DNA from: Candidatus Moraniibacteriota bacterium
GTDB lineage: Bacteria > Patescibacteriota > Minisyncoccia > Moranbacterales > GWC2-37-73
Assembly (NCBI GenBank): GCA_003507445.1
Contig: DNVR01000008.1
Span: 29,083 to 93,082, forward strand
Length of the DNA: 64,000 bases
Reading direction: 5' to 3'
Position 1 is the first letter of the stretch, and each line of letters opens with the position of its first letter. The translations under genes were made by a program, and so were the position numbers. The notes beneath the pieces were generated by a model, which was given only the letters and a program-made list of their open reading frames with translations, was not told the origin of the DNA and made no database searches. Below, piece by piece: positions 457 to 63,043 of the stretch.

Positions 457-1206
457 ATGAGTAAACCCTTGTGGTTTAAAGGAAAAACAGTGCAAAATTG
501 GAAAAGTGATGTTGCACGAATAAAAATTGTCATCAAAAGAAGCAATATTCTTTTTTTTGCTATTGCGCTTGCAGTTTTCGCTGTGTTGACAAGTTTATGG
601 GAAAACCAAACAGTGTCATATGCTAAGAAATATGCTACCAATAATGCAAATATTCAGGTCAAATCTCCCTTGCTTGAAGAACGAGAAGAATTGTTTGGCG
701 AAACTGTCGTTAGTGACAGGCAAGCAATGATTCTTAAAAAAGAACTTTTGAAGCAAACACAAGAAGACGGGAATATAGATTCAGGTCAATTTGCTCAAAA
801 AATATATGAAATAGTCGGAGATGCGCCAATTCGTGAGATGGTGCCATTTATTGCTAAGCGAGATGAAAAAGTGGCAGCATTTTTGGTTGGAATTGCAAAA
901 AAAGAAAGCAGCTTCGGTTTGGCTTCGCCGTCTAAGGATGGGAAGACTTGTTATAATTATTGGGGATATAAGTCATCAGGCGAGCGTGGAACTGCAATGG
1001 GGTATGCTTGTTTCGGTAGCGCTGAAGAAGCCATTAAAGTTGTTGGCGATCGCATTGAAGTTCTGGTTAACAAACAAAGAAACACTCCAGCTCGAATGGT
1101 TGACACTTGGAAATGTGGCACAAGCTGTGCCGGCGACCCCGGAGCACCCAGCTGGACTTCAACCGTAGCATTATATTTTAACCAACTTGTGACTAAAGAA
1201 GGTTAG
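457..1206 (+). CDS. hypothetical membrane-anchored protein (N-terminal TM helix); tandem paralog of upstream partial ORF
   Basis: 249-aa ORF with hydrophobic segment ILFFAIALAVFAVL. C-terminal region homologous to ORF 2..241. Followed by an intrinsic terminator. Confidence 0.55.
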   Translation: MSKPLWFKGKTVQNWKSDVARIKIVIKRSNILFFAIALAVFAVLTSLWENQTVSYAKKYATNNANIQVKSPLLEEREELFGETVVSDRQAMILKKELLKQTQEDGNIDSGQFAQKIYEIVGDAPIREMVPFIAKRDEKVAAFLVGIAKKESSFGLASPSKDGKTCYNYWGYKSSGERGTAMGYACFGSAEEAIKVVGDRIEVLVNKQRNTPARMVDTWKCGTSCAGDPGAPSWTSTVALYFNQLVTKEG

Positions 1207-1226
1207 AAAATACTTTGAATATAAAA

Positions 1227-1257
1227 AACGCTCAACTCTTGTTGAGCGTTTTTTTTG
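1227..1257 (+). terminator. rho-independent terminator (hairpin AACGCTCAAC-TCTT-GTTGAGCGTT plus T-run)
   Basis: Perfect 10-bp stem followed by TTTTTTTT, directly after the stop of 457..1206. Confidence 0.7.
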
Positions 1258-1389
1258 TTTAATCATTGGAGATTCATAAGAAATATGCTATATTTTATTC
1301 ATAAATCAGTAATGGTTGTATTATACTAAAAGTTCGCATAACCTGCAACTTTCAGCACACTATCAAACATTAAGTTCGCATATAAACGA

Positions 1390-1591
1390 GTTCATCTGAA
1401 ATGTCGCTCCGCTACGCTCGCTCCATTTCAGATGAACGCGCGCGCCTGCCGTCGCTGTCATCTGCTGTGTTGCTTCTCCCTACGGTCGTGAGCAAACACA
1501 TCAGATAACAGCGCCTATCCGAAATTTCCCTCGCCCCGACTGCTGTCGGGACTCGTGAAACATCGGATCAGGCGCGCGCGTTCTGCGAAAT
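1390..1591. repeat. GC-rich structured repeat element, copy A (full core ~202 bp)
   Basis: Near-identical to 2791..2992. Contains nested stems: GTTCATCTGAAATG...CATTTCAGATGAAC, CGCGCGCGCCTG...CAGGCGCGCGCG and CCCGAC-TGCT-GTCGGG. GC ~58% in an AT-rich background. Confidence 0.8.
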
Positions 1592-1640
1592 AGCGAAAAA
1601 CATACCTTTATTAATAATTTTTTCAAGCCCTTTTGAAATA

Positions 1641-1676
1641 AAAAAATCCCCCGGTCAATCACCAGGGGACGGCAGT
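1641..1676 (-). terminator. rho-independent terminator for the minus-strand small ORF
   Basis: Hairpin CCCCTGGTGATTGACCGGGG followed by a T-run on the minus strand, immediately after the TGA stop at 1677..1679. Confidence 0.55.
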
Positions 1677-1843
1677 CATCTTTTCAGATTTTTCATCACT
1701 GCGTAGAATGAAGCTGCTGCTCCGCCAACCATTACAAGTGCGAGTAATCCGATTGCAATGGGCTCGTAAATCTTCGGGTAGGATATCGTGGAAACCGTAA
1801 AGAGTGCCGTCCCTACGCCAAAAACAAAAGCATCCCATTTCAT
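1677..1843 (-). CDS. small hydrophobic membrane protein (55 aa), not in supplied ORF track
   Basis: ATG preceded by AAGGAGG with 6-nt spacing. Translation MKWDAFVFGVGTALFTVSTISYPKIYEPIAIGLLALVMVGGAAASFYAVMKNLKR. Terminator downstream. Local GC ~50%. Confidence 0.45.
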
Positions 1844-2077
1844 AAAGAACCTCCTTGAGAGTTGATATTACAACACTTCAATGACTTCCTATCCTACACA
1901 CGAAGTATTGAAATGTCAAGTGGCAATATTTCAAAAGGGCTTGAAAAAATTGGGCTCAAAATAAGGAGTGTATGTTTTTCCGCTACATCGCAGAACAAGC
2001 AATATCTGGCTCAAAAGTCTTGCCTAATATATAATTAAATAAAGGAGTGCAAGATTTTTTCGACCCAAATTTGCCCT

Positions 2078-2192
2078 TCGCTACGCTCGATCAAACTTCA
2101 GATATTGCTAGACGTTCATCTGAAATTTTCCTCGCCCCGACTGCTGTCGGGACTCGTGAAACATCGGATCAGGCGCGCGCGTTAGATGAAAT
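2078..2192. repeat. GC-rich structured repeat element, copy B (internal-deletion derivative)
   Basis: Has the 5' arm (TTCGCTACGCTCGATCAAACTTCAGATATTGCTAGAC), GTTCATCTGAAAT, then jumps to the 3' part TTCCTCGCCCCGACTGCTGTCGGGACTCGTGAAACATCGGATCAGGCGCGCGCGTT. Confidence 0.7.
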
Positions 2193-2255
2193 ACCCAGAA
2201 ATTTCTTTTTTTATTTTAATATTTTTTTGCAATTCATAATTCTTAATACAAACCC

Positions 2256-2630
2256 ATGTTTAATCCAAATCGTCCACCATCAGAACAATTAGAAAATAAA
2301 ATGTTCACTATCGAGCTTAAGGATAATGAGTCCATTGTCGTTAAGGAAATGGAACCAGGTGTATTTAAAATAGTAGATAATAGTATAACAAAAAAAGATG
2401 AGCATCAGATGGCGGGCGAAACATTCATAGGCTTCGGAGAGTGGGATGATGAGGTTGAAGATTTAGATAGTCGTAGTAGCGATGCACGATATTTTGATAT
2501 GTCGGAACATCTCAGATGGGAAGATGTTGAGTTTATTGGTGATGATGAAATAAAGGCGCCATCACTAGATCGGCTGAAGCAAGCGTTGCAACACATAAAA
2601 ATACTTCCTTATAATCCCGAAGATATGTAA
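2256..2630 (+). CDS. hypothetical acidic protein
   Basis: 124-aa ORF between repeat copies. No recognisable motif. Confidence 0.3.
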   Translation: MFNPNRPPSEQLENKMFTIELKDNESIVVKEMEPGVFKIVDNSITKKDEHQMAGETFIGFGEWDDEVEDLDSRSSDARYFDMSEHLRWEDVEFIGDDEIKAPSLDRLKQALQHIKILPYNPEDM

Positions 2631-2748
2631 TTGCAAAATACATTAAGGAAAAAGAAATTTCTGGGTACATCACATAACAAGGCACATGCGGTTCAAAAAT
2701 TTTGCATCTTTTAAAATTAGAGGTGTGCAAAATTTTCTCTCCCAAATT

Positions 2749-2992
2749 TTTTTCGGCTATGCCTTCAGAAAAACTTCAGATATGCCTAACGTTCATCTGA
2801 AATGTCGCTCCGCTACGCTCGCTCCATTTCAGATGAACGCGCGCGCCTGCCGTCGCTGTCATCTGCTGTGTTGCTTCTCCCTACGGTCGTGAGCAAACAC
2901 ATCAGATAACAGCGCCTATCCGAAATTTCCCTCGCCCCGACTGCTGTCGGGACTCGTGAAACATCGGATCAGGCGCGCGCGTTGTGCGAAAT
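2749..2992. repeat. GC-rich structured repeat element, copy C (full, includes 5' arm)
   Basis: 2791..2992 nearly identical to 1390..1591. The 5' arm CCCAAATTTTTTTCGGCTATGCC...CTTCAGATATGCCTAAC is shared with copies B and D. Confidence 0.8.
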
Positions 2993-3443
2993 GCATGTTT
3001 TCCTTTTGGGCTAACGCCCTGGCTCAAAAAAGAATCCGATTTTGTTTTTTCTTTATTTTAAAGAGGGGTTAAAAAGGTGTTTTTCTGCTCTTTGGGGAGC
3101 AGAAAAATTATACAAAAATTATACATATTGATTTTATTTATAAGCCATGTTAACTTATTATTATCAGTTAAGAATTTGTTTGTAGATTATGTTCTTTGTA
3201 TCAATTGATGTTATCCCACAGAAAGGAGGAAACTGCTTATGCGGAAGCTTATTGTGCTGTGCGCAGTTGTAGCTCTGGCTTAGAGACCATACCGATTTGG
3301 CCGGCGTCGTCGCCCGGCCGCCAGAGAAACATTCGCCCCCGATTCAAGAAACGGAAGAACCGTCATGGTGTAACCGTGGATTCTTGAATTGGCATAACCG
3401 ATAAACCGCCAACAAATGGATATACCCCCAAGGAGGTAATACC

Positions 3444-3542
3444 ATGACGACCAGCCGTGGACGACCTGTTTTCGCTCAGATGATCAAGGGAGAAGAAGCT
3501 GCCGGCAAGGTGAAGAAAGCCGAAGGTACAGCACTGGTCTAG
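3444..3542 (+). CDS. micro-ORF (32 aa) with consensus SD inside a GC-rich island
   Basis: AAGGAGG-7nt-ATG. Encodes MTTSRGRPVFAQMIKGEEAAGKVKKAEGTALV. Strong terminator 80 nt downstream. GC ~55%. Confidence 0.25.
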   Translation: MTTSRGRPVFAQMIKGEEAAGKVKKAEGTALV

Positions 3543-3622
3543 GACCGTGAAGTGGCCGGCCTCGTCCTTCCGGCCAAAATGGGGAAAGATAATCGTCAAC
3601 CGGACATCATGTCCATAACCTG

Positions 3623-3658
3623 ACCGCTCTCGGCATTGCTGAGAGCGGGTCTTTTTTT
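3623..3658 (+). terminator. rho-independent terminator
   Basis: ACCGCTCTC-GGCATTGCT-GAGAGCGGGT followed by TTTTTTT. Confidence 0.7.
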
Positions 3659-3863
3659 ATTTGCCACCCCAATAAATACCACGTATAATTACCAATAAGG
3701 AGTATTGGCTCCAGGCCATTCACCCTTAGCCCCTCTTCCCAAAACAAAGACGAAATTCAATTAATTCATTACAGAAATGCTATTCCTCTGCTGAGGAATG
3801 AAAAGAAAAAACAAACATCGCACAACAACGAGTATCCGGTTTCGACTTTTTCGAAAGTCTTCA

Positions 3864-3948
3864 CCCAAATTTTTCTTTCGCTATGCTTGGTCAAACTTCA
3901 GATACTGCTAGACGTTCATCTGAAATGTCGCTCCGCTACGCGCGTTCG
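3864..3948. repeat. GC-rich structured repeat element, copy D (large internal deletion)
   Basis: 5' arm, GTTCATCTGAAATGTCGCTCCGCTACG, then CGCGTT. Shares its 5' arm with copies B and C. Confidence 0.6.
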
Positions 3949-4052
3949 GAAAAAAACTAAAAATTTCCTCTCTATTTTGAAAAGAATTTTTTGGCAATTT
4001 TGTTCGGTCGAACTAATTTTAAACAATTCAAAAAATTAATTTTAAAAACAAA

Positions 4053-4898
4053 ATGATGAGAAATAAAAAAGAAAATATTACCATAATTATAATTATCGTA
4101 ATTTTAACCTTATCCGCAGGAGTTATCGGCTGGATGCTAGCGAAGAACTCGCAAGATGTTTCAAAATCTAAGATAGTTAATAATTCAAAACTAATAAGCA
4201 CAACAGAACAGTCTTCGGAGCCGACAAATAAAATTTCTGAATCGTTACCTCCTGTTGATGAAATCGCTATTAACGATTTTTCCATAGCTATTGTCGCAAA
4301 CAATGATCTGCACTGGTCTAGTCGCGCAAATGTCAAATCAGATACTTCAATTCAATTTCGCTGGACAACAACAGGTGCGGATAGTTGCAATATAAGTGGC
4401 GGAAATTTATTTAATTCGAATACAAATTTAGCAACAAACGAAACAGGAATTAAAAAAGTTGCAGATGATTTTTCGAACGGAATCTACACATTAAAATGTG
4501 TAAGAAAATTAGATAATAAAACAGCAGAGGCAACTCCTATAATACTCAATGTCACACCAGCTAAAAAGTTAGTCATGTGCATGAAAAAATGCGGAAATGG
4601 CGGAATACCCATTCAGCAGAATATGAATCGCTTCTCTGGTGAAACAGTCCAAAAAGTCCGAGCGTGTTTTGGAAATTTTGCGTTGGATTGTCCAACACAG
4701 GATGTTACCAAAAATGCCGAATGGCTAACTAGTAATAATTCGATAATTACTTGGTCAAAGGATTATACGGTCGATGGAGAGAAGATAGTGGATGATGTGT
4801 ATCCCAATAAAACCCTGAAATCAGTCGGTGCAGGCAATGCTGAAGCCAGTGTTACATATTCTGGTTATTCATATGTTGTGAGGGTTGATGTGAAGTAG
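4053..4898 (+). CDS. hypothetical secreted/membrane-anchored Cys-containing protein
   Basis: 281-aa ORF with N-terminal signal-anchor ITIIIIIVILTLSAGVIGWML. No recognised catalytic motif. Confidence 0.5.
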   Translation: MMRNKKENITIIIIIVILTLSAGVIGWMLAKNSQDVSKSKIVNNSKLISTTEQSSEPTNKISESLPPVDEIAINDFSIAIVANNDLHWSSRANVKSDTSIQFRWTTTGADSCNISGGNLFNSNTNLATNETGIKKVADDFSNGIYTLKCVRKLDNKTAEATPIILNVTPAKKLVMCMKKCGNGGIPIQQNMNRFSGETVQKVRACFGNFALDCPTQDVTKNAEWLTSNNSIITWSKDYTVDGEKIVDDVYPNKTLKSVGAGNAEASVTYSGYSYVVRVDVK

Positions 4899-5083
4899 AC
4901 ATATTAAAAATAATTACTAAAAACTCTTTATTTTTAGGAAAGAAAAACTTTAGTTTCATTGCTTGAACCCGGCATATGTGGCTCGAAAAATTGACACTAT
5001 TAAAAAGTTCCAAATCAAGCATCATATTTGACGAAAATGAGTTAATTGGATATAATTGGATGTAGTTAATATATCCAAAAACT

Positions 5084-6172
5084 ATGGCTAATATAAAGCA
5101 AAAAGATATTAATATTGCAGACAAATTTTCAAAAAGGCTTGATAATATACCTGCGGAAATAATTTCAAAAATCGCCAAGATTGATGAATTAAAAGGCAGC
5201 TGGGTTTCTGGCACTCAACTAAGCTCGCAAGCACTGGGTCGTCTCAAGCGGTCTGTTTTGATAACCTCGACTGGAGCATCAACTCGTATTGAGGGTGTGC
5301 AACTTTCTGATGAGGATATTGAAAAAGTGATGCGCGGTATAAATATTCAAAAATTTGCTGACCGCGATAAGCAAGAAGTCAAGGGTTATTACGAACTTTT
5401 GGAAAATGTCTTTAATTCTTGGGGGAGTTTGAAATTCAACGAAAGTTCAATAAAACATTTCCACAAGGAGTTATTGAAATATTCAGAAAAAGACCAGGGT
5501 CATTTGGGTGATTACAAATTTGGAGAAAATAAAGTCGTCGCATACGATCATGAAGGAAAAGAGGTTGGGATAATTTTCAATCCCACTTCGCCATACCTCA
5601 CGCCCAAAGAAATGATTGAGCTTATTGAATCAACCAATTTTTTGCTTGCTGAAAAAAAATACCATCCGTTGCTAGTAATTGCAAATTTCCTGGTTGAATT
5701 TTTGGCAATTCATCCTTTTAAAGATGGAAATGGAAGAGTTTCTAGAGTTTTGACGAATTTATTGTTGCTTCAAAATGGATATCTGTATATGCCGTATGTT
5801 TCACATGAAAAACTAGTGGAAGACAATAAAACAGATTATTATCTTGCACTTAGGAGAAGTCAAAAGACTTTTCATTCAAAAAACGAAGACATTTCTCCAT
5901 GGTTAGAATTTTTCTTTACAATTTTATTACGACAATCACAATTTGCGATTGAATTATTGTCAAAAGAGAATATTGAAAAATTACTATCAGAAAGACAACT
6001 TGCAGTTTGGAAATTTTTTCAACAAGTTGAAATTACTGGAACAGGCGAGATTGTTGCTGGAACAAATATTCCGCGGCCAACCGTCAAGCAATCACTTGAG
6101 GTATTGTTGAAGTTGAAAAAAATAGAGAGAATAGGCCAAGGTAGAAGTGTGAGATATAAAAAGGTTGCTTAA
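5084..6172 (+). CDS. fic: Fic/DOC family protein (putative AMPylator) with N-terminal inhibitory helix and C-terminal winged-helix-like region
   Basis: Canonical Fic motif HPFKDGNGRVSRVL (HxFx(D/E)GNGRxxR). Upstream STRIEG matches the (S/T)xxxE(G/N) inhibitory motif of class II Fic proteins. Confidence 0.85.
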   Translation: MANIKQKDINIADKFSKRLDNIPAEIISKIAKIDELKGSWVSGTQLSSQALGRLKRSVLITSTGASTRIEGVQLSDEDIEKVMRGINIQKFADRDKQEVKGYYELLENVFNSWGSLKFNESSIKHFHKELLKYSEKDQGHLGDYKFGENKVVAYDHEGKEVGIIFNPTSPYLTPKEMIELIESTNFLLAEKKYHPLLVIANFLVEFLAIHPFKDGNGRVSRVLTNLLLLQNGYLYMPYVSHEKLVEDNKTDYYLALRRSQKTFHSKNEDISPWLEFFFTILLRQSQFAIELLSKENIEKLLSERQLAVWKFFQQVEITGTGEIVAGTNIPRPTVKQSLEVLLKLKKIERIGQGRSVRYKKVA

Positions 6173-6416
6173 GATTGAATAATAGAAAGAAAATTAAGAA
6201 GTTAGGTTCGCCAAAATACGTAAAAGTTTATATTTCTAAAAAGCGGAATCAAGGGATTTCGCTTTTTGTTATGGATTTTTTGGTGTATAATGAATGTATA
6301 AAATGATCAATGAGCAGTTTTCAATTTTCATATAAATTAATAATTTTCAATTTGAAAATTAAAAATATTGAAAATTAAATGAAAATTGTGAATTGTAAAT
6401 TGAAAATTGTTAATCT

Positions 6417-7337
6417 ATGTCTTGGATTTTTGTTGCAGTAAGCGCATATTTTTTGGGAGCCTTTGCGGTCCTGATGGACAAGTTTCTTTTGGGCTCCAAA
6501 AGAATTTCTTCTCCGCAAGTGTACACTTTTTACGTGGGAATTTTTGGATTGGGCGCATTTCTTTTTGCGCCGTTTGGTTTTGATGTTCCTTCTGCTTGGC
6601 AGATCACAATAAGTTTTATTTCGGGAGCAATTTATATTGGCGGAATTTTTGCGCTCAATCTTTCAATCAACAAAGCTGAAGCAAGCAGGGTAACACCTGT
6701 TGTTTTTTCGGTTGTGCCGATTGCGACATATTTGATATCCTTTGTTTTTAATGATGAAAAACTGACACTCATTCAGATTGGTGGAGTCGCATTGCTTATA
6801 ATCGGTGGACTGCTCATTTCTTTTGACTTGCCGCTTAAATTGAACAAGAGAAAATTTTTTGTTGGCTTTTATTTTTCTTGTTTGGCTGGAGTGCTTTTGG
6901 CAATTTCATATGTGATGTTTAAGATGGTTTATGTTGAGCAAACATTTTTAAATGGATTTATGTGGACCAGAGTTGGCGGTTTTGCGGCTGCACTTTTGCT
7001 TTTGATTGTTCCGACTTGGCGCAAGGCTATTTTTAAAAGTTTTTCTCATGCTAAAAAACCTTCAAAGGAACATATTGGCACGGGAGGAATATTCATTGCA
7101 AATAAGATCCTGGGCGGAACAAGTTCTATCTTGCTCAATAAGGCTTTTCAGTTGGGAAGTGTGACATTGGTCAATTCGATGGTATCGCTCCAATATGTGT
7201 TTGTGCTTATTCTCGTGGCAATAGCAGCCAAAAAACATCCGAAAGTTTTTGAAGAAAAGTTGTTGTTTTGGGATTGGGCTCAAAAAGTTGTTGCGATATT
7301 AATCATTGCAATAGGGATGGTTTTAATTTCAAGATAG
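6417..7337 (+). CDS. polytopic membrane protein, EamA/DMT-superfamily-like transporter
   Basis: 306 aa with ~10 hydrophobic helices in two halves. No ATP-binding motif. Confidence 0.45.
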   Translation: MSWIFVAVSAYFLGAFAVLMDKFLLGSKRISSPQVYTFYVGIFGLGAFLFAPFGFDVPSAWQITISFISGAIYIGGIFALNLSINKAEASRVTPVVFSVVPIATYLISFVFNDEKLTLIQIGGVALLIIGGLLISFDLPLKLNKRKFFVGFYFSCLAGVLLAISYVMFKMVYVEQTFLNGFMWTRVGGFAAALLLLIVPTWRKAIFKSFSHAKKPSKEHIGTGGIFIANKILGGTSSILLNKAFQLGSVTLVNSMVSLQYVFVLILVAIAAKKHPKVFEEKLLFWDWAQKVVAILIIAIGMVLISR

Positions 7338-7343
7338 AAATTC

Positions 7344-7462
7344 TGTCATTCCGGACTTGATCCGGAATCCAGGTTTTACGCTTAGTGATTTTTATTGCGA
7401 TAATTACAGTTTTTATACGGAATTGCAGAACCTGGATTCCCGCCTTCGCGGGAATGACAAAA
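7344..7462. repeat. MITE-like palindromic element, copy 1 (TIR TGTCATTCC...GGAATGACAA)
   Basis: ATTCCGGACTTGATCCGGAAT and ATTCCCGCCTTCGCGGGAAT palindromes (ATTCCC-N8-GGGAAT form). Second copy at 21297..21382. Confidence 0.75.
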
Positions 7463-7524
7463 GGTTAATTTGTAAAAAATACTCTCGCTCCTAAATTTTA
7501 TAAATTAAATAATATATTATAAAA

Positions 7525-8598
7525 ATGAAAAAAGAAAAAACCAGTTCAAGCAAAATAAGCTCGGCATTGGCTGGGTTGTGGCGCGCTATCTCTTGGACTT
7601 TGGCTGTGATTGTGATTGTGTTTATCCTCTTGTTTATATATGTGAATTTGCCAGTTAAGGCAAACACTGATGATGCAAAAATCGGTGTGACATTTTCATA
7701 TATTTACGCTGAGCAAATCGGGCTTGATTGGAAACAGGCATATTTGGCAATGTTAAATGATCTTAAAATTAAGCATATAAGATTGCCAATATATTGGGAC
7801 AGGGTTGAGGGTAAAGAAGGTGAATATGATTTTTCGCATATTGATTGGCAGTTGGAACAAGCACGAAATGCTGGTGCGGAAATAATTTTGGTTATTGGTC
7901 AAAAGGTTCCACGTTGGCCAGAATGTTATGTGCCAAAATGGGTGGGAGAAGATCCAAGCAATCTTCCTGCGGACAGATTAAAAGAAAAATTGTTAACCTT
8001 TGAAGAAGTTGTTATCAACAGGTATAAGGATAATCATCCCGAAATTGTTCGTTGGCAAGTTGAGAATGAACCGTTTTTGAATTTCGGAATTTGCTCTAAA
8101 GTTGACACTGAACTTTTGGACAGTGAACTTGTTAAGGTGAGAGAACTTGATCCCAGTCGTCCAATTGTGGTTACTGACAGTGGGGAACTTAGTTTGTGGG
8201 TAAATGCTGCCAAAAGAGCTGATGTTTTTGGAACCACAATGTATCGAGAAGTTTATAGTCAAAAAATGGGTCATTGGCGTTATCCAATAGGACCAAATTT
8301 TTTCAAAATAAAACAGTGGATGATTGAGGCTTTTGCTGATCAGGAAAATGCTATTGTGATTGAGCTTCAAGGCGAGCCGTGGGTGGCAGGATGGACAATT
8401 GATGCACCTGTTGAAGTTCAACTTGCTTCAATGAATGCTGAAATTTTGAAGGAAAATATAGAATTTGCCAAAAAAACAGGAATGAACGAAATTTATATTT
8501 GGGGTGTGGAATGGTGGTATTATATGAAAACAGTTCAGAATAATCCAACTCTCTGGGAAACAGTCAAGGCATTTGAAATTCAAAACAATGCAATATAA
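7525..8598 (+). CDS. putative glycoside hydrolase (TIM-barrel clan GH-A-like), membrane-anchored
   Basis: N-terminal TM helix. VENEPF motif typical of the GH5/clan A acid-base catalyst; candidate nucleophile in IELQGEPW. Confidence 0.4.
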   Translation: MKKEKTSSSKISSALAGLWRAISWTLAVIVIVFILLFIYVNLPVKANTDDAKIGVTFSYIYAEQIGLDWKQAYLAMLNDLKIKHIRLPIYWDRVEGKEGEYDFSHIDWQLEQARNAGAEIILVIGQKVPRWPECYVPKWVGEDPSNLPADRLKEKLLTFEEVVINRYKDNHPEIVRWQVENEPFLNFGICSKVDTELLDSELVKVRELDPSRPIVVTDSGELSLWVNAAKRADVFGTTMYREVYSQKMGHWRYPIGPNFFKIKQWMIEAFADQENAIVIELQGEPWVAGWTIDAPVEVQLASMNAEILKENIEFAKKTGMNEIYIWGVEWWYYMKTVQNNPTLWETVKAFEIQNNAI

Positions 8599-14040: not shown

Positions 14041-14452
14041 TGTATATATGGTGGAGTTGATGGGAATTGCACCCATGTCCAAAATTGACAATCCAAAATC
14101 CTCTACAAGTTTAGTTTATTTTTTCTCACCGAAGCGAGTGCGACTAATTAGAGTAGAGAATAAACAAAACCTCTAAATGCCGTTTTCAGAATTATTTCGC
14201 ATTTTGTGTCCAAAAAACCACAAAACACTATTCTCATGTTTGACACCGAGGTCTGCTTACGAGAAATCAGCAGTTCGATGGCTTCGAGCCTAAGCTAAAG
14301 CAGGTGAAAAACCAGCAAATGCTTGCGCAAATGTAGCTTTCGCCTTTGATATGAAGTTTGCACTTATATCTTCGCCACACTTTTTACGATACAGCAGCGG
14401 TGATCGACTTGCATATTTTGAAAAGTACAACCTGTCGAAACTAAACAACCCC
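14041..14452 (-). ncRNA. ssrA: tmRNA (ssrA)
   Basis: Minus-strand 5' GGGGTTGTTTAGTTTCGACAGG matches the tmRNA 5' consensus. 3' end reads ...GGACATGGGTGCAATTCCCATCAACTCCACCA with encoded CCA. Acceptor pairs 7/7 including the G3-U wobble. Adjacent to smpB. Confidence 0.75.
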
Positions 14453-15735: not shown

Positions 15736-17121
15736 ATGACTAAAAAAAGCCAAAAAATTGAATTGCTTGCGCCGGCGGGCTTGTCCGCCAAAGCCATTAA
15801 AAATACTGATAATTTGAAAAGTGTAAAAATTTTGAAAAAAAGAGAAGATAAAATTGAATTACTCGCGCCGGCGGGGAGTCCGGAAAAATTGAAATATGCC
15901 ATCAAATATGGGGCAGATGCTGTTTATTGTGGAGTCCCAGATGTTTCAATGCGCGCTCGCGTGAACACTTTTACTGAAAAGGATCTTTTGGAAGCGGCAA
16001 AATTTGTTCACAGTGAGGGCAAAAAAATATTTGTAACTTTGAATATTTATGCGCATAATTATCATTTGTCAAAAATAGAAGCGCATTTAAAATTTTTGAA
16101 AAAAGTTAATGTCGATGCTGTTATTGTGGCTGATCCGGGAGTGATTATGCTGGTCAAAAAGCATTTGCCAAAAGTTGCCATTCATCTTAGCACTCAAGCC
16201 AACACGACAAACTGGCAAGCAGCAAAATTTTGGTATGACCTTGGCGTGACAAGAATCGTTTTAGCCAGAGAAGTTACACTGGAGGATATTACTGAAATAA
16301 AAAAACATGTACCAAAATTGGAGTTGGAATATTTTGTGCACGGAGCAATGTGTATGAGTTATTCCGGACGTTGCATTTTGAGCAAATGGATGAGCAACAA
16401 AAGTGCAAACCTTGGAGATTGCACGCAACCGTGTAGGTGGGGATACAGGCAAAAGTCGAAAGTCGAAAGTTTAAAGTCTAAAGAAATAGAAGAATATAAA
16501 ACAATGGAGGTTGAGGAAGTTCAGAGTGGGCGGCCGGTTTTGTTGGAGGAGGATTCTCACGGAACATATTTTTTCAACAGCAAGGATTTGAACTTGCTTT
16601 CGCATTTGCAAGAACTTCGTAGCGCGGGCGTGACGTCGTTTAAAATAGAGGGGCGCAATAAGAGTGTGTTTTATGTGTCCAACGTTTGTAGGGCCTATAG
16701 GAGCGTTCTGGATGCAATCGAGACCAAAAAAACAGCTCCGGAGGCCAGAAAAATTCAAAAATGGGCAGCAAAAGAATTGGATAAATTGGCAAATCGTGGC
16801 TATACCAAGGGTTTTTTGCTTGGAAACGAGCCTGAGCACGGTTTTTCCGGTCAACAAGGGGGCAATGAGTTTCAATTTGTGGGAGAAATCCTAGAAGTTA
16901 ATGGCAGCGAACTGACTGCAAAAATTCATAATGTTGTAAAAGCTGGAGACAATTTGGAGATTATAGATAAGAAAAAAAACATTGCCATTAAAATTTTGAA
17001 GATTTACAATCAAGACAGAGAAGAAGTTTCCTCGGCGCACGGCGGTCACGGCAAATTGTATTTTTTGAAAGTAAACAAAAAAAATATCCAGCCGTATTCA
17101 TTGCTGAGAAAAATAATTTAA
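15736..17121 (+). CDS. U32-family peptidase (collagenase-like / RlhA-TrhP family)
   Basis: ELLAPAGSPEKLKYAIKYGADAVY N-terminus and HGAMCMSYSGRC motif. N-terminal 32 aa are an in-frame direct duplication (IELLAPAG twice). Confidence 0.75.
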   Translation: MTKKSQKIELLAPAGLSAKAIKNTDNLKSVKILKKREDKIELLAPAGSPEKLKYAIKYGADAVYCGVPDVSMRARVNTFTEKDLLEAAKFVHSEGKKIFVTLNIYAHNYHLSKIEAHLKFLKKVNVDAVIVADPGVIMLVKKHLPKVAIHLSTQANTTNWQAAKFWYDLGVTRIVLAREVTLEDITEIKKHVPKLELEYFVHGAMCMSYSGRCILSKWMSNKSANLGDCTQPCRWGYRQKSKVESLKSKEIEEYKTMEVEEVQSGRPVLLEEDSHGTYFFNSKDLNLLSHLQELRSAGVTSFKIEGRNKSVFYVSNVCRAYRSVLDAIETKKTAPEARKIQKWAAKELDKLANRGYTKGFLLGNEPEHGFSGQQGGNEFQFVGEILEVNGSELTAKIHNVVKAGDNLEIIDKKKNIAIKILKIYNQDREEVSSAHGGHGKLYFLKVNKKNIQPYSLLRKII

Positions 17122-17135
17122 TAGTATAAAATTTT

Positions 17136-18530
17136 ATGAAAATTTTGTTGAGTGATAAAAAAAATGTTTTTGACAAAAAAATAACTGGTATTTCTTTTAG
17201 TGAGAAAATCTCTGAAAGTAAGTTTGTTATCAAAGATGGTTTACAAATTTTAGAAATAAAAATTCCTAAAAAAGAAAAAATAAATTGGAGACAAGCAGCA
17301 TTAATACCAAGAAGTATTATTGCTACCGCTAAAAAACATCAAATAAAAAAAATAGCCCTAGATTGGCCTGATATTGAAGCAATGAAAATGGGGAATTCTC
17401 AAGACGTGGCAGAGTCTTTCGGAATTAATTTTGAAATGGCAAATTACGAATTTGTTGCTTTTAAAACTAAACCAAAAGAGGGATGGGATTTTATTGATGA
17501 AATTCAAATTTTTGGATATGAAAAAAATGATATAAAAAATGCTTTAAAAAAAGGGCAAATTATAGGGCAAGAAACAAATGCGTGTAGAGAACTTTCAAAT
17601 ATGCCTGGTGGAGAAATGACTCCCGAAATATTGGTTCAAAAAACTGAAAAGGCTATAAAAAATACTAGGATTAAAATGAAAGTCTTGGATGAAAAAGAGA
17701 TGAAAAAAATAAATATGAATGCTGTATTGGCTGTAGCAAAAGGTTCTGTTGAAAAACCAAAATTTATAATACTGGAACATTTTGGGGCTAAGAATAAAGC
17801 GGAAAAACCTGTTGTTTTGATAGGGAAGGGTGTTACATTTGATTCGGGTGGTTTGAATATAAAAACTGGAAATGGAATGGCAGATATGAATATGGATATG
17901 TCTGGTGGTGCTGCCGTGGTGCACACTTTAATTCTGGCTTCCAAGCTTGGAATTAAAAAAAATGTAATAGGCTTAGTGCCTGCAGTAGAAAGTATGCCTT
18001 CTGGCGAAAGTTTGAGACCAGGCGATATAATTAAATCAATGTCTGGTCAAACTATTGAAGTTCAAGATACTGATGCAGAGGGTAGGATTATTCTTGCAGA
18101 TGCAAATACTTATGCTGAAAGATATAATCCAAGTTTAGTTGTAAATGTGGCAACCTTAACTGGTGCGGCTTGCGTTGCTCTCGGAGAAAGAGCGTCAGCT
18201 ATATTTTCTAAAGACGAAAAACTTACTGATTTATTTAAAAAATATGGAGAGGAAAGTGGTGATCATGTTTGGCCGTTGCCTCTTTGGGAAGAATACGAAG
18301 TTGAGGTTAAAGGTATAAATGGAGATGTTTGCAATATAAGAAATAGAGCGAATAGTCGTGATGGCGGAGCAATTCTCGGTGCAATATTTGTGTACCAATT
18401 TGCCAAAAAATTTCCACAATGGATACATATAGATATTGCTCCGCGTATGGTTTCAGTTTTTGATGAATTTTTGTCAAATGGAGCTGCTGGTGCTCCGGTT
18501 AGGTTGTTGATTAAATTATTGGAAAAATAA
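17136..18530 (+). CDS. pepA: leucyl aminopeptidase (M17 family)
   Basis: NACRELSNMPGGEMTP, LIGKGVTFDSGG and DTDAEGRIILADA signature motifs. Confidence 0.85.
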   Translation: MKILLSDKKNVFDKKITGISFSEKISESKFVIKDGLQILEIKIPKKEKINWRQAALIPRSIIATAKKHQIKKIALDWPDIEAMKMGNSQDVAESFGINFEMANYEFVAFKTKPKEGWDFIDEIQIFGYEKNDIKNALKKGQIIGQETNACRELSNMPGGEMTPEILVQKTEKAIKNTRIKMKVLDEKEMKKINMNAVLAVAKGSVEKPKFIILEHFGAKNKAEKPVVLIGKGVTFDSGGLNIKTGNGMADMNMDMSGGAAVVHTLILASKLGIKKNVIGLVPAVESMPSGESLRPGDIIKSMSGQTIEVQDTDAEGRIILADANTYAERYNPSLVVNVATLTGAACVALGERASAIFSKDEKLTDLFKKYGEESGDHVWPLPLWEEYEVEVKGINGDVCNIRNRANSRDGGAILGAIFVYQFAKKFPQWIHIDIAPRMVSVFDEFLSNGAAGAPVRLLIKLLEK

Positions 18531-21065: not shown

Positions 21066-21287
21066 ATGAAATTAATTACTATCGCTCAGCTTGTCGTGGC
21101 AATTCTGCTTACTGTTTCAATTTTGCTTCAAAATAGGGGTAGCGGTCTTTCTAGTGCTTTTGGGGGAGACTTTGGGGGTTATTACACAAAAAGAGGGATG
21201 GAAAAGTTCCTTTTTTATCTTTCAATGTCACTGGGCGCAATCTTTATTATTCTTGCAATTGCAACCATCGTAATTGCAAATCGCTAG
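21066..21287 (+). CDS. secG: preprotein translocase subunit SecG
   Basis: Two TM helices and LLQNRGSGLSSAFGG motif, similar to SecG LQQGKG...FG. Confidence 0.6.
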   Translation: MKLITIAQLVVAILLTVSILLQNRGSGLSSAFGGDFGGYYTKRGMEKFLFYLSMSLGAIFIILAIATIVIANR

Positions 21288-21296: not shown

Positions 21297-21382
21297 TGTC
21301 ATTCCGGACTTGATCCGGAATCTCGTCACGTACGCAAGTCCGGCTCCGTCCTGGATTCCCGTTTTCACGGGAATGACAAAAA
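21297..21382. repeat. MITE-like palindromic element, copy 2
   Basis: TGTCATTCCGGACTTGATCCGGAATC...CTGGATTCCCGTTTTCACGGGAATGACAAAA. Same termini as 7344..7462 but lacks a central segment. Confidence 0.75.
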
Positions 21383-30241: not shown

Positions 30242-33200
30242 ATGGGTGTAATCGGAATAAGGAAAAATATAAAAAGCAAAAATTGGGGACTGAAAATTAT
30301 TTCAGCGTTTTTTGCTTTGAGTTTCTTTTTTGTGGCTGTCGCTTCAGCTGAAGTCGCTCCAACAATCTCTGAAATTTCTCCAAATAATGGGTTGCCAGAG
30401 GGTGGAACAAGTGTGACGATAACTGGAACAAATTTTTCTCAAAGTACAATAGATGCAAACACGAAATTGTTGATTCAAGGTAACGGCACAGGTGCAAGCT
30501 TCGTTGATTCTGAAATAACCCCAAAGACAGTTACCGCTGTTGGAAATGTCACCCAATCTTCTGCGCAGTCAAAATTTGGAGGATCAAGTGTTTATCTTGA
30601 TGGAAATGGCGATTATTTGTCTTTAGCGGACAGCGAGGATTGGGCTTTTGGCACAGGAGATTTCACAATGGATATGTGGGTTAAAACAACCGAATCTGAT
30701 GGTTTCTTGCTTTCTCAGATGCCTTCAAATGGTGCAGCGGGAGTTGCTAGTTTTTATTCAGTTGTGAGTGTGGATGGAAAAGTTATTTTTGTTCCTGATT
30801 ATGTTTCCTACCCAAGTCATCACACTATAACATCAACAGTTTCTGTTAATGATGATGCTTGGCATCACATCGCATTTGTTAGGAACGGCGCATATATAAG
30901 AATGTATATTGATGGAACAGAAAGTGGCACAGCTTTAAATATGGGCGCTGGTTTTACTATGACAAATTCTGCTGAACTTTTGAAAATAGGTAGCATTGGG
31001 CTTCCAGAAAATTACAGTCCTTATGGTGGGTATATTGATGAAATCCGTGTTTCCAAGGGGATTGCTCGCTGGACCAGCAATTTTACACCTCCATCTTCTG
31101 AAAATCATTTGCAATCAACATTAACAATCGGTGGAACTTCTGCCACAAATATTGCAGTTACAAGCCCAACTACAATTACCGCCACAACTCCTGCTCACGC
31201 TGCGGGTGCAGCTGATGTAGTGGTTACAAATTACGACGGTCAATCTGCAACACTGACAAGCGGATATACTTTCAATGCTGCTCCAACCATTTCTGCAGGA
31301 GCTGTTACTCCAGCGAGTGCAAAACTTACGGGTGGCGACACAATTACAATTACAGGATCTGGTTTTTATGGAACTCCAAGTGTAACTCTTGGTGGAACAG
31401 CTGCGACTGCTGTTACAGTAGTAAATCCAACCACAATCACCGCGACAACCCCAGCACATTCTGTTGGTGCTGTTGATGTTGTGATTACAAATGAAGATTC
31501 GCAAAGCGCGACACTTGCAAACGGATTTACATTCACGGAACTTCCACCGACAGTTTCAGGAATTTCTCCAAGTGCTGGTTCACCTGCTGGCGGAACAAGT
31601 GTGACGATAAGTGGAACTAATTTTTTGGTTGGAGATGTTGATACATACACTAAAGTGTTGCTGCATGGTGATGGCACGGGAGCAAGCTTTGTTGATTCTG
31701 AATTAATCCCAAAAGTAGTTACAGCAGTTGGCAATGCTACTCAATCTGCTGCGCAATCTAAATTTGGAGGGAAAAGTATGTATTTTGATGGGAGTGGTGA
31801 TTATCTTGATTTGGCAACCTCTGCTGATTTTGGTCTCGGCACAGGTGATTTTACTGTGGATTGTTGGGTAAATTTCTCCACTGTAACTAATGCAATATTT
31901 GTGAATACCACTAGTTCAGCAAATGGATTCTTTTTTCAATACTATAATAATGCTTTTACTTTTGGTCAAAATAATGTAGGTTTTGTAATTAATACACCTT
32001 GGACGCCTTCTATAAACACTTGGTATCACATAGCAGTGACAAGGGCGAGTGGCACAACCAAAGGCTTTATTAATGGAACGCAAATAGCATCTGTTAGTGA
32101 TAATTATAATTACGCTAACAATATATTGCGCGTAGGTGAAAGCGTTAATGGTTATCTAGATGAAGTCCGTGTTTCAAAAGGGATTGCTCGTTGGACTAGT
32201 AATTTTACACCGCCGTCTGCTGAATATCACTCACAACCAATGTTAACTTTTGGCGGAATCTATGCTACAAATGTCGCAGTCACAAACCCAACTACAATTA
32301 CCGCTACAACTCCTGCTCACACTGCAGGTGCAACTGATGTTGTCGTCACAAATTACGATGGACAAAGTGCAACACTAACAAGTGGTTACACTTTCAATCC
32401 TGCGCCAACAATTTCTGCTGGAGCAGTTTCTCCAGCCAGTGCCTTGAAGACAGGAGGCGACACAATTACAATCACGGGAACAGGATTTTATGGCACACCT
32501 ACCGTAACTTTGGGAGGAACAGCTGCGACTGCTGTTACAGTAGTAAATCCAACCACAATCACCGCGACAACCCCAGCACATTCTGTTGGTGCTGTTGATG
32601 TTGTGATTACAAATGAAGATTCGCAAAGCGCGACACTTGCAAACGGATTTACATTTACAGAACTTCCATCAACAGTTGGATCAATTTCTCCAAATAATGG
32701 AACTGTTGCAGGTGGAACCAATGTGACGATTACGGGGACGAATTTTATTGAAAACAGCGCAACAGGTGGAACGATTACAACCTCTGGAGAATATACAGTG
32801 CATACATTTACAGGAAGTGGAACGTTTGTGCCGAATAATGAGATGGATGTTGAGGTTTTGGTTGTTGCTGGCGGAGGTGGAGGTGGAGGTGGAGAACCTA
32901 GTGCTGGCGATTCTGGTGGTGGTGGAGGAGCTGGAGGATACAGAACTGCAAATCTTACAATATCATCAGAATCTCATAATGTGACTGTGGGTGCTGGAGG
33001 CGCAGGTGCAGCAGGAACATCTTTACCAGGAAATAAAGGGAATGATTCAATTTTTGATTCCATAACTGCAGCAGGTGGAGGTGCTGGTGGAATAGAGGGC
33101 GGAAGTGGTGGAGCTGGAGGATCTGGAGGTGGAGCTGGAGGTCTCTGTTCAGTTCCAGTTTCAGGAGGAGCAGGTAATACGCCAGCAACGACACCAAGTC

Positions 33201-36200
33201 AAGGAAATAATGGAGGATTTACACCCGGGACAACTTGTTCTGGGCGAGCTGGTTCTGGCGGTGGTGGTGCTGGCGGTGTTGGAGGTGCAGGAACCACTGT
33301 TAGTGGCGCTGGTGGTGCGGGCGTAGCAAGTGATATTACCGGAACTTCTATAACAAGAGCTGTTGGTGGTGCTGGCGGACAAAGCGGCAGTGGAACAGGT
33401 ACAGCAGGAGCTGCAAACACTGGAAATGGTGGAAAAGGAGGAGGAATAAGTTCTGCTGGTGGTGCAGGAGGAAGCGGTGTTGTTATTGTTAGATATTTGA
33501 CCCATAAACCAGTAGTTACCATCGGTGGAACTTCTGCTACAAATGTCGCAGTCACAAGCCCAACCACCATCACTGCCACAACTCCCGCACATACCGCAGG
33601 CACAGCTGATGTGGTGGTTACGAATTATGACGGACAATCTGCAACGCTGACAAATGGATACACTTTCAATCCTGCGCCAACAATTTCTGCAGGAGCAGTT
33701 TCTCCAGCCAGTGCAAAACTTACTGGAGGCGATACAATCACAATCACTGGAACGGGATTTTATGGCACACCTACCGTAACTCTTGGAGGCACAGCTGCGA
33801 CTGCTGTTACAGTAGTAAATCCAACAACAATCACTGCGACAACTCCCGCACATTCTGTTGGCGCTGTTGATGTTGTTATTACAAATGAAGATTCTCAATC
33901 CGCAACTCTTACCAATGGATTCACTTTCACAGAACTTCCACCAACACTAAGTTCAATTTCTCCTGATAACGGTCCAGTAGCAGGGGGAACTAATGTGACG
34001 ATAAGTGGTACGAATTTTGTCGCTGGGTCTGTAAGTGCAATTGGCGGAACAATAACAACTGATGGTGATTATACGGTACACACATTTACAGGTAGTGGAA
34101 CATTTACAGCTGATAGTGATATGCCTGTGGAGGTTCTGGTTGTTGCTGGTGGTGGAGGTGGCGCAGGAATGGCTGAATCTGGTGGAGGTGGAGGAGGTGG
34201 AGTGCAACATCATACTTCATGGCCAATAAATGCTGGTGCAAATTATAGTGTTGTAGTTGGAAATGGTGGTTTAGGTGCTACAAGTGTTTCAAATGGTGCA
34301 AATGGTGCAAATTCATCTTTTGGCGAATTGATTGCTAATGGAGGTGGTGGAGGAGGTGGATTTATCGGTTTAACTCCAGGATCTGGAGGTTCAGGCGGTG
34401 GATCTACGCGAGGAGTTGCTGCAGGATTGAGTAATCAAATTTCAATTAATGGTTCAAATTCTTACGGAAATCCTGGAGGTGTTGGATGGCCAAGTGGATA
34501 TACGGCTGGAGGTGGTGGAGGTGCTGGTTCTGCGGGAGGAAATGCTACTAGTGGAGTGTATCCAGATGGAGGTGTTGGAGGTGCTGGAAGAGCATTTGAT
34601 ATTTCAGGAACATCAACATATTATGCTGGAGGTGGTGGAGGAATTTATGCTTATGGTGGTATTGGTGGTGGAGGCAATGGTAATATGGGAACAGTTGAAT
34701 CTTATAATGGTGTGGCTAATACTGGAGGTGGAGGAGGTGGAGGAGCTAATGTAGTTGGAGGAGATGGTGGTTCTGGAATTGTAATAGTGAGATATTTGAC
34801 AAAGGCTAAATTGCCAACCGTAATAATCGATGGAATTGCAGCTACAAATGTTTCACTTGTGAACCCAACCACAATAACAGCAACCACTCCTGCTCACACT
34901 GCAGGTGCAACTGATGTTGTCGTCACAAATTACGATGGACAAAGTGCAACACTAACAAGTGCGTTTGAATATCACAATTGGATTACGGCAGGAACGTATA
35001 CCTCAACAGTTAAACCTCTGGCTAATGTTGGATTTGGAAACATTGATTGGGTTGCTGGCACGCCTGCTAATACTAATTTGACAATGCGAGTAAAATCTTG
35101 CACCTCTGCTGATTGCAGCGACAAACCAAGTTGGTCTGGATGCGACTTGGCTGCGCTGGACAATGGTACCGATATTTCCGGTAAGGGTTGTGTGGTGGAT
35201 GGCCAAGGTTATGTTCAATATCAAGCATATCTTTCAACTGATTCAAATTCTGCTCAGCCATATCTCGACAGCGTCACAATTTCAACTCAACCAGAATATT
35301 CCAAAACATTTTTAAGTCTCATTTCTTCTCCTTTTGATACGGGAAATGAAAGCAACAGTGTTCAAAAAATTTCTTGGACTGCAACAAATGACAACTTGGC
35401 AACTCAGGGACAAGTGGCAATACAAATTCGAACTGCACCGGATAATGGCGGAATTCCTGATTTTACAAATTCAGTTTGGTGTGGGCCGACTGATTGCAGC
35501 GGCACAACAAATTCAACAACAGCTTTTGCAATCAGTTATTACACTGACAAAACAGGGGCTCTTGCGATAAATGCAATTAACAAGGATCTTAGTGATGATC
35601 GTTGGATTCAATATGCAACATTCTTGAAATCAGCTGATGGAACTTTGACTCCGACATTGACTGATGTGACGATGCAATATGCATATAACACTCCACCAGC
35701 AATTACAATTGACAGCAACCCAATATTTTTAAAGCAAAATGCAGATGGAACTTTCTCTGTTCCATACACCTTAAGTGAAACTTATGATGATTTTGGTAAC
35801 ATTCCTCACGGAACAGCTGGTTCTCCGATTAAAGCACTTCTTTTTTATCAACCGAAAAATGACATCACAATTGAAGAACTTACAAATGTTCGAACAGGAA
35901 TTGTCACCCTCAATAATCCAAGCAATCTTCCAATTCCATCGCAAGGTTCAATGCTGATTGGCGATGAGTTGATGACTTTTGATTCAGTTGGAGCAACTGG
36001 AAATCAAAGAAACATCACAGCGCGTGGAATTGCTTTTGCAACTTCATATCCAACCACGGCTGCTGCACACTTGGCAAATTCCGCAGTATTTTTTGCAACT
36101 TCAGCTTCGATTCAAACAATCGATACGCTTGTTGAGACGGGCATAGTTGGCGCTGAGGCATCCGTATCAAATATGTTCTCTTGGAATCCAAGAACTGATG

Positions 36201-57849: not shown

Positions 57850-58578
57850 CTATTTCGTTTCCTGCCTGGCAATTACGATTGCGAAAACCTCGCTTGCCCC
57901 CGCTTCTTTTAATATTTTGGCGCATTCAAAGAGGGTGGAGCCAGTGGTGGCAATGTCGTCAACCAACAAAACAGTTTTGTTTTTGATTTCCGCATTAGGA
58001 GAGAGTGAAAATGCTCCGGCAATATTTTGCTTGCGCGAAATGTGATCTTTTATTTTCATTTGTGGCGACGTGTAGCGATTGCGAATAAGAATGTTTTCGT
58101 CAAATGATATTTTGTTTTGAGGCAATAAATTGTCGGCAAGATGTTTTGCGAGCAGCGCTGATTGATTGAATCCTCGCCAGCGGAGTCTTCTTTTGTGAAG
58201 CGGCACTGGTGTTATGATGTTTGGCAGTGGAAGTTCTGTTTTTCTTAAGACATTCACAAATAAATTTCCCAAAGGAACGTGCAAATCATCCACGAAGCGA
58301 TATTTGAAAAGATGAACTGCTTTTGAAATTTGAAATTGGGAATAGGAAGCTGCAACAACCATTCCATCAAGAGAACTTTTTTTCTTGCAAGCAAGACAAG
58401 TTTGTCCATCCGGAGTAATCATTTTTTCGCATATTGGGCACAAATGTTCCTCATTAATGTGAATGTTATTTTGACATTTGTTACAAAGCCAAGAACTCTC
58501 TTTTTTGCAGTTTATGCAAGAAATAGGAAATAAAGTGTCCAATAATATGAAATGCGTTTTTTTAAGAAAGTTTTTCAA
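57850..58578 (-). CDS. comFC: ComF-family protein (double zinc ribbon + phosphoribosyltransferase domain)
   Basis: CINCKK...CNKCQ / CPICEK...CLAC zinc ribbons and PRPP-binding VLLVDDIATTGSTL. Confidence 0.8.
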   Translation of the reverse strand: MKNFLKKTHFILLDTLFPISCINCKKESSWLCNKCQNNIHINEEHLCPICEKMITPDGQTCLACKKKSSLDGMVVAASYSQFQISKAVHLFKYRFVDDLHVPLGNLFVNVLRKTELPLPNIITPVPLHKRRLRWRGFNQSALLAKHLADNLLPQNKISFDENILIRNRYTSPQMKIKDHISRKQNIAGAFSLSPNAEIKNKTVLLVDDIATTGSTLFECAKILKEAGASEVFAIVIARQETK

Positions 58579-63026: not shown

Positions 63027-63043
63027 ATTTAAAAAATATAAAT

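Follow-up and report, generated by a model that had tools for sequence, protein, structure and literature searches.

The two repeats that follow membrane-protein genes in this part of a Candidatus Moranbacteria (Patescibacteria) chromosome are probably inverted doublets of Ssn-type hairpins, the SRM/NTS kind that contains the neisserial dRS3 sequence, and we propose that an Ssn nuclease acting in trans nicks them and promotes their turnover. The hairpins themselves are of a known kind. What is new is the Patescibacteria host, the evidence for insertion, replacement and loss, and a left-hand unit, here called the A unit, that falls outside the published search string.

In Neisseria, dRS3 (ATTCCC-N8-GGGAAT) sits at the center of the NTS, an oriented hairpin of 28 nt with the sequence CGTCATTCCCGCGMAVGCGGGAATCYRG (Chenal et al., Nat Commun 2025, PMC11893778). 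This hairpin is bound, as single-stranded DNA only, by SsnA, a 94-aa single-domain GIY-YIG nuclease of the CDD family cd10448, which cuts a few nucleotides 5' of it; binding depends critically on the C directly 3' of the palindrome, and cleavage on the three bases ahead of it (PMC11893778). Related SRM motifs are found on either side of ssn genes in several phyla, and NTS-ssnA-NTS reminded the authors of an insertion sequence; what Ssn has been shown to do is to cut single-stranded DNA and to modulate transformation, not to transpose (PMC11893778). An earlier note, made from the sequence alone, had regarded the dRS3 form as unexpected in this DNA. Since a 2025 paper described SRM hairpins and Ssn nucleases from several phyla, that surprise no longer holds in general, even if Patescibacteria go without mention there (PMC11893778).

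Architecture of the two doublets

The window, that is, the whole 64-kb stretch of DNA that was analyzed, contains two such elements and no further doublets. The 26-mer TGTCATTCCGGACTTGATCCGGAATC is the left end of both (7344-7369 and 21297-21322, both on the + strand) and has exactly these two matches in the window, with a chance expectation of 0.00 in shuffled sequences; the dRS3-like core ATTCCCGNNTTCNCGGGAAT lies at 7436-7455 and 21355-21374, where shuffles give 0.08. The features are as follows.

Doublet 1, 7344..7459, 116 nt: two convergent hairpin units flanking a 56-57-nt AT-rich core
Left unit of doublet 1, A type, 7344..7373, + strand: TGTCAT TCCGGA-CTTGA-TCCGGA ATCCAGG
Right unit of doublet 1, B type, 7431..7459, - strand: minus-strand reading TGTCATTCCCGCGAAGGCGGGAATCCAGG, containing ATTCCC-N8-GGGAAT at 7436-7455
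Doublet 2, 21297..21378, 82 nt: unit types as in doublet 1, around an unrelated 27-nt core
Left unit of doublet 2, A type, 21297..21322, + strand: identical to the left unit of doublet 1
Right unit of doublet 2, B type, 21350..21378, - strand: TGTCATTCCCGTGAAAACGGGAATCCAGG, with the dRS3-form core at 21355-21374
Third doublet (L234 4498-4621), on the same scaffold, some 5.4 kb before the start of the window: TGTCATTCCTGCGGAGGCAGGAATCCAGG ... CCTGGATTCCGGGTCAAGCCCGGAATGACA
Mechanical ORF of 45 aa across doublet 1, 7357..7494, + strand: includes LDSRLRGNDK, which is the right unit in translation

Each unit is oriented and 25-28 bases long, and consists of (T)GTCAT, an 8-bp stem, a 4-5-nt loop, a C and then YRG; the A-type left unit has the 8-bp stem with a CTTGA loop. 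Left units read on the + strand and right ones on the - strand, so that the pair converges with GTCAT outermost. The elements extend from TGTCA to TGACA, with the right edge, ATGACA, at 7459 and 21378; the AAA(A) that follows is present at all copies and belongs to the flank. The units have a G+C content of about 55-60% (counted from the sequence) vs 38% for the window. As single-stranded DNA they are predicted to fold into hairpins of -7.6 to -8.9 kcal/mol (z -3.2 to -4.3), with -8.9 kcal/mol for both units of doublet 1 (z -3.95 for the left one) and -7.6 and -8.3 kcal/mol for the left and right units of doublet 2.

The earlier note had placed the two copies and their shared termini correctly. 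The left 26 nt are identical, and the near-identical right ends differ by one compensatory stem pair, C-G to T-A, and one loop base, the loop being GAAG in doublet 1 and GAAA in doublet 2. The ATTCCC-N8-GGGAAT form that the note gives applies strictly to the right ends only, since the left ends read ATTCC-N11-GGAAT. Of the extra central segment of about 35 bp that it ascribed to copy 1, the length difference (34 nt) is real, but the two AT-rich cores are unrelated and do not align, so that copy 1 cannot be derived from copy 2 by a 35-bp insertion.

Both doublets begin shortly after the stop codon of a membrane-protein gene, as had been noticed before, and both lie between co-directional genes. 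Doublet 1 starts 6 nt past the TAG (7335-7337) of an EamA (PF00892) gene, the next ATG (7525) being 65 nt beyond its end, and doublet 2 starts 9 nt past the TAG (21285-21287) of a SecG (PF03840) gene. The third doublet, which combines one GGAG-loop unit with one CTTGA-loop unit, is flanked by a 156-aa gene and a VTT-domain gene; it lies 12 nt past a stop codon and 14 nt ahead of the next start codon, and ends directly before a GGAGG ribosome-binding site. All three doublets of the source genome thus start 6-13 nt past a stop codon. They amount to six units in the approximately 77 kb that formed our sample of this genome, against an expectation of about 0.06 SRM matches per 64 kb. The 45-aa ORF is a by-product of the repeat and not a gene, and none of 10 assemblies has a gene call at its site; peptides like LDSRLRGNDK recur as 'hypothetical proteins' in many annotations.

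Elsewhere in the window, Rfam places a full-length tmRNA (130 bits) at 14049-14452 (-), adjoining smpB; ARAGORN reported three tRNAs and no tmRNA. A 3703-aa ORF (30242-41353, +) occupies a stretch of 43% G+C vs about 37%, and a 1406-aa ORF (42888-47108, +) carries fn3 and purple-acid-phosphatase N-terminal repeats; both likely encode giant surface proteins. A DNA-uptake-type cluster, encoding ComFC-like (Pribosyltran plus double zinc ribbon), PilM, PilO-like and PilB/T2SSE ATPase proteins and a response regulator, spans 57850-63427 and beyond, and beside it, just past the window edge (L232), is a second T2SSE ATPase.

Relationship of the units to the SRM/NTS motif

When the published SRM string, HGTCWYN(0-2)YYVSBRHN(0-5)WNVSBRGN(0-2)RNCYNB (quoted from PMC11893778), was run on the window, it gave three matches vs 0.06 in shuffles. 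Two of them are the right units, at 7432-7459(-) and 21351-21378(-), and the right unit of doublet 1 is the NTS consensus save for base 1. The neisserial link drawn in the earlier note is therefore borne out at the right ends, which match the 28-nt NTS/SRM motif containing dRS3. The third match, 43266-43292(-), was treated as a chance hit because it lies inside the 1406-aa ORF and has no hairpin.

The A-type left unit fails the string at one position, where it has G and the string requires W, and its sequence was not found in print in the literature searched. Left-unit relatives with the identical loop and other stems match the SRM string and flank GIY-YIG genes. The units, moreover, keep the positions that matter to SsnA, namely the GTC that precedes the palindrome and the C that directly follows it, and they display the design of the family: oriented single-stranded DNA hairpins with conserved, non-palindromic flanks, in which the flanks are invariant and the stems covary. 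The NIME of Neisseria are defined by arrays in which dRS3 units lie on both sides of members of repeated RS families (PMC1797815); the doublets of the window are isolated, and their cores are mutually unrelated.

Distribution of the A unit and of doublets

A scan for TGTCATTCCGGA-N5-TCCGGAATC, with one genome per species, revealed the exact 25-mer A unit in at least 119 genome loci from at least 17 phyla. These include many candidate Patescibacteria groups, Chloroflexota (Dehalococcoidia), Bacteroidota, Ignavibacteriota, Desulfobacterota, the Alpha-, Beta- and Gammaproteobacteria (Pseudomonadota), Spirochaetota (Treponema), Planctomycetota, Melainabacteria, Nitrospirota, Elusimicrobiota, Actinomycetota and others, and among the loci are megabase contigs and cultured isolates. 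The A unit also lies, unannotated, on Sphingomonadaceae megaplasmids (e.g. NZ_CP076395.1 270768-270794) and Treponema plasmids. Four IMG/VR contigs (L019-L022) carry it, and cultured-phage records are essentially without it.

At loop positions left free by the search, CTTGA occurs in 88 of 130 units (68%) among the matches listed. Where the search did not fix the inner stem, 59 of 63 neighboring units keep at least three complementary inner pairs, vs 2.4% in shuffles, and 15 stem triplet types occur among them. This covariation indicates that the hairpin is maintained by compensatory change, with flanks and loop conserved.

The usual form of the A unit among the matches listed is the convergent doublet, of which these matches (at least 119 loci) contain 69 with lengths of 51-180 nt; units also occur singly or in tandem orientation. 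Several doublets elsewhere have the A+B make-up of those in the window, consisting of an A unit, a short spacer and CCCGCTTTCGCGGG or CCCGTTTTCACGGG. Taking the 69 together with the two of the window, the ends read (T)TGTCAY...RTGACA(A), 66 of the 71 doublets are intergenic, gene 3' ends are faced more often than 5' ends (64 vs 39), and the distance from a stop codon is frequently <20 nt. The target-site duplication that the earlier note suggested looking for was found in none of the 71, at two offsets and lengths of 2-8 nt. In some genomes the whole doublet, core included, is the repeated unit, unlike in the window: doublets of about 105 nt with similar cores recur at L046 6367-6473 and 7433-7540, and L094 5259-5363 equals L140 4490-4594 (Rickettsiales MAG CAZNNM01).

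Filled, empty and replaced sites in relatives

Exact protein matches assign the window to groundwater metagenomes from Rifle and to Candidatus Moranbacteria MAGs. Orthologous sites were compared in relatives anchored on SmpB. Site 1, between the EamA and GH5 genes, is empty in L143, L144 and L145 (about 75-78% identity), where a plain spacer of a few tens of nucleotides or less is present. In L142 (Ca. Moranbacteria GW2011_GWC2_37_73), at about 90% nucleotide identity, the same site is occupied by a different element, 17060-17200. Its right junction is identical, ATGACA|AAA-GTTAATTTG, and the doublet itself has the unit types in reverse order, several compensated stem-pair differences and a different core. 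The first end is followed after 9 nt by another, incomplete one, GCGGTGCTGGGAATGACA, which looks like the footprint of a nested insertion or of recombination. In L164, a distant relative whose EamA protein shares 45% amino acid identity, the EamA-GH5 spacer holds a decayed doublet (16840-16975, e.g. CCGGATTCGCGCTTTCATGGAAATAATAC), either an old element lost elsewhere or the mark of a recurrent target.

Site 2, between the SecG and SBP genes, is empty in L144. In L012 (10230-10337) and L018 (521-628), at about 89% identity, it is filled by a different insert of 108 nt, which folds at -43 kcal/mol as RNA, contains the perfect 14-bp palindrome ATCTGGGCCCAGAT and has only the TGTCAT...ATGACA termini in common with the element of the window; no other copies of it were seen among the loci examined. 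Doublets occur at non-orthologous places in other relatives. Near this site, between a 311-aa gene and SecG, L012 (GCA_028715745.1, 6500-9800) has extra genes, including a reverse transcriptase (RVT_1, 341 aa), and the gene content of L142 in this interval also differs.

The elements are therefore not at the same loci in all relatives, and copies exist elsewhere: sites are empty at about 75-78% identity and replaced at about 90%, and an extra copy lies 5.4 kb off the window. This agrees with the mobility suspected in the earlier note. Its description of the elements as MITE-like holds in part, with sharp inverted termini and site polymorphism on one side and neither target-site duplication nor a common core on the other. 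A classical MITE derived from an insertion sequence with a DDE transposase would be small, with terminal inverted repeats and presence/absence polymorphism, as observed here. Against it, 0 of 71 doublets have a target-site duplication, the cores of the copies are unrelated, the supposed terminal repeats are hairpins in their own right, found singly or in tandem as well, and no DDE transposase is associated with them among the matches listed. Based on the lack of duplications and the unrelated cores, the elements do not form a classical DDE-type MITE family, an origin that we consider hardly tenable.

Association with a single-domain GIY-YIG gene

All unit pairs 200-2500 nt apart, convergent or otherwise, were collected from 8-kb loci, and the longest ORFs enclosed by them were clustered. 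Among the matches listed, the sole family recurrently enclosed across taxa was a single-domain GIY-YIG protein (PF01541) of 95-111 aa. In L099, L139, L086 and L179, units with GTCAT on the outside directly adjoin the GIY-YIG gene on both sides, which is the geometry of the gene-less doublet; in L167, it has a downstream GTCAT unit only. L099 is Parcubacteria GW2011_GWC1_45_14, also labelled Moranbacteria, and a homologue search with its GIY-YIG protein, P0001, gave at least 8000 relatives, many of them in Patescibacteria. P0001 has a single genomic context in 21 contigs and thus shows no sign of recent cassette movement; in a PDB comparison, the Ssn-like protein had only a weak match to UPF0213. 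The Patescibacteria GIY-YIG proteins are putative homologues of SsnA (cd10448). In L139 ('bacterium C24_metabat.bin.173'), more than 15 units, mostly in doublets of 59-61 nt, are crowded into 8 kb; this NIME-like array extends over 600-7760 and surrounds a 99-aa GIY-YIG gene at 3042-3338.

No transposase recurs near the units, 111 ORFs at ≤60 nt from a unit belonging to 119 unrelated Pfam families. The window and about 13 kb of extra source DNA (about 77 kb together) contain no GIY-YIG, transposase or recombinase gene, and a search of loci L001-L018 and L232-L236 gave no ssn gene either.

These results bear on two other mobile-element readings. One is that the units are hotspots of recombination or integration in the sense of the NIME, serving, independently of Ssn, as substrates of homologous exchange or as targets of a site-specific recombinase, for example of the IS110/Piv type, as for the neisserial filamentous phage at dRS3. 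The dRS3-RS-dRS3 form, with GC-rich units around an AT-rich spacer, speaks for this reading, as do the wholly different alleles at the same junction in strains about 90% identical, the partial duplicated end in L142, and the ComFC-like and type IV pilus genes in the window. Against it, no recombinase or transposase is present in the window and none is enriched beside the units among the matches listed, where the sole recurrent enclosed gene encodes GIY-YIG. As a full replacement for the preferred reading it seems unlikely, and it is compatible with that reading rather than exclusive of it.

The other is a REP/REPIN system mobilized by a RAYT, an IS200/IS605-like Y1 transposase. Inverted doublets of short hairpins, the absence of target-site duplications, intergenic position and turnover within a site are all features of such systems. 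Classical REPs carry a GTAG head. The head here is GTCAT, the recurrent genes enclosed by or adjacent to the units in the 8-kb loci are GIY-YIG only, with no Y1_Tnp among the matches listed, and the motif that the units match has been linked to Ssn by experiment (PMC11893778). We therefore regard a RAYT-driven system as very unlikely, and retain the Ssn-type hairpin as the identity of the units.

Folding and possible effects on the transcript

The whole doublets fold strongly on either strand, at -32 to -43 kcal/mol as RNA (z -3 to -5). Doublet 1 reaches -42.5 kcal/mol as RNA (z -3.9) and -23 kcal/mol as single-stranded DNA (z -4.7). A role as terminators had been suggested in the earlier note; the RNA folds are indeed strong, but at neither doublet are the hairpins followed by a T-run on the transcribed strand, and the sole terminator-like match, in copy 2, is on the strand that is not transcribed. 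Elsewhere in the window, canonical hairpin-plus-T sites do exist, at 27 vs 15.2 +/- 3.9 expected. An intrinsic terminator is ruled out by the missing T-run. No Rfam family matched the elements at the gathering threshold, the only sub-threshold matches being FtrB (23 bits, with 66 needed) and a flavivirus CRE.

A primary function at the RNA level would make the doublets 3'-UTR stem-loops selected in place, acting by termination, by protection of the upstream mRNA, or by an effect on translation termination at <15 nt from the stop codon, as E. coli REPs do. Such a function would fit the start of 3 of 3 source doublets at 6-13 nt past a stop codon, the preference across taxa for gene 3' ends (64 vs 39, often <20 nt from the stop) and the strength of the RNA folds. 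It fits poorly with transcribed strands that have no T-run in a window that has canonical terminators, with the same 25-mer and its conserved unpaired flanks in more than 15 phyla among the matches listed, with orthologous spacers that are empty in relatives, and with the absence of an Rfam family match; moreover, RNA is not acted on by SsnA (PMC11893778). RNA as the primary level of function is thus improbable. An mRNA-stabilizing or translation-coupled effect near the stop codon is possible but secondary, and an RNA effect is more likely a side-consequence of the repeats' position.

A model for nicking and turnover

Given that the units converge, each strand bears, at the 5' edge of the element, a single unit oriented for cleavage. 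During replication, repair or DNA uptake, when DNA becomes single-stranded, the hairpins would extrude, and a small GIY-YIG nuclease of the Ssn family, putative here, could bind them in trans and nick a few nucleotides 5' of GTCAT, that is, at the element boundaries, with one cut per strand. Nicking combined with recombination between copies may then allow doublets to spread, to be replaced and to be removed without target-site duplication, and would explain why the ends are sharp, how one doublet can take the place of another at a given junction, and where the incomplete second end in L142 came from. The doublet, which has no gene, might stand to the unit-ssn-unit cassette as a REPIN stands to a RAYT gene. 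With one cleavable site per strand, a simple excision of the IS200/IS605 kind is not obvious, and we offer Ssn-driven transposition as a hypothesis. More speculatively, doublets may be tolerated only between genes and so end up just past stop codons, where a stem-loop in the transcript might stabilize the 3' end, without being a canonical terminator.

Several observations count against our preferred explanation: there is no GIY-YIG gene in the approximately 77 kb read, the A unit is one base off the SRM string, the cassette of P0001 gives no sign of having moved recently, and three doublets in about 77 kb is a low density. On the biological side, the ComFC-like and type IV pilus proteins encoded in the window make a role in the handling of incoming single-stranded DNA conceivable, by analogy with Neisseria.

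A broader claim, which we put forward tentatively and which is perhaps less likely to be right than wrong, is that a pan-bacterial mobile element exists in two forms, the doublets being the non-autonomous one. The autonomous form would be hairpin-ssn-hairpin, driven by a GIY-YIG nuclease of about 95 aa and inserting without target duplication, and horizontal spread would have carried the element across more than 15 phyla, including the ultra-small Patescibacteria. If this is true, the conservation of the 25-nt A unit, loop included, reflects both spread and recognition.

Our findings place the Ssn/SRM system, and with it the old puzzle of dRS3 in Neisseria, in Ca. Moranbacteria, a groundwater lineage with a reduced genome and DNA-uptake genes. 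The filled, empty and replaced orthologous sites, together with the absence of target duplications, are added here to a picture in which the 2025 paper only hypothesized such insertion, and the gene-less doublets prove to have the inverted architecture of the unit-nuclease-unit cassettes. On the practical side, a 25-mer this widespread yields spurious ORFs and noise in assembly and annotation, and it can serve as a pointer to further Ssn enzymes, possibly with new specificities for single-stranded DNA.

Comparison with known systems

Correia elements and other bacterial MITEs resemble the present elements in their small size, inverted termini, intergenic position and insertion polymorphism. 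The differences are that target-site duplications and a conserved body are absent here and that the termini are self-folding hairpins. The resemblance to REP/BIME/REPIN-RAYT systems extends from the inverted hairpin doublets, intergenic and without target-site duplication, to a small 'domesticated' single-gene nuclease flanked by the same repeats; the enzyme is a GIY-YIG protein here and an HUH-Y1 transposase there, and the conserved head here is GTCAT.

With the dRS3/NIME of Neisseria (Parkhill 2000; Bentley 2007, PMC1797815), the elements share right ends that fit ATTCCC-N8-GGGAAT, the succession of unit, 27-57-nt AT-rich spacer and unit, which corresponds to the 'isolated dRS3-RS-dRS3 units' (PMC1797815), and the variation of syntenic copies between strains. 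They differ in that long arrays are absent, the spacers fall outside the repeated RS families, the left ends depart from strict dRS3, and the host is not Neisseria.

Compared with the SRM/NTS system, the published string narrowly misses the left unit (stem CCGGA, loop CTTGA), the doublets are isolated, gene-less, convergent and of low density, whereas SRM/NTS occur in hundreds of copies, and the approximately 77 kb of source DNA examined holds no ssn gene. The design of the units is nevertheless the same, with GTC 5' and C 3' of the palindrome in a single-stranded DNA hairpin that is intergenic and, in the approximately 77 kb sampled, present more than once, and the right ends have almost the same sequence. 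Moreover, other Patescibacteria and other phyla have the unit-gene-unit arrangement around a single-domain GIY-YIG gene of about 95-100 aa.
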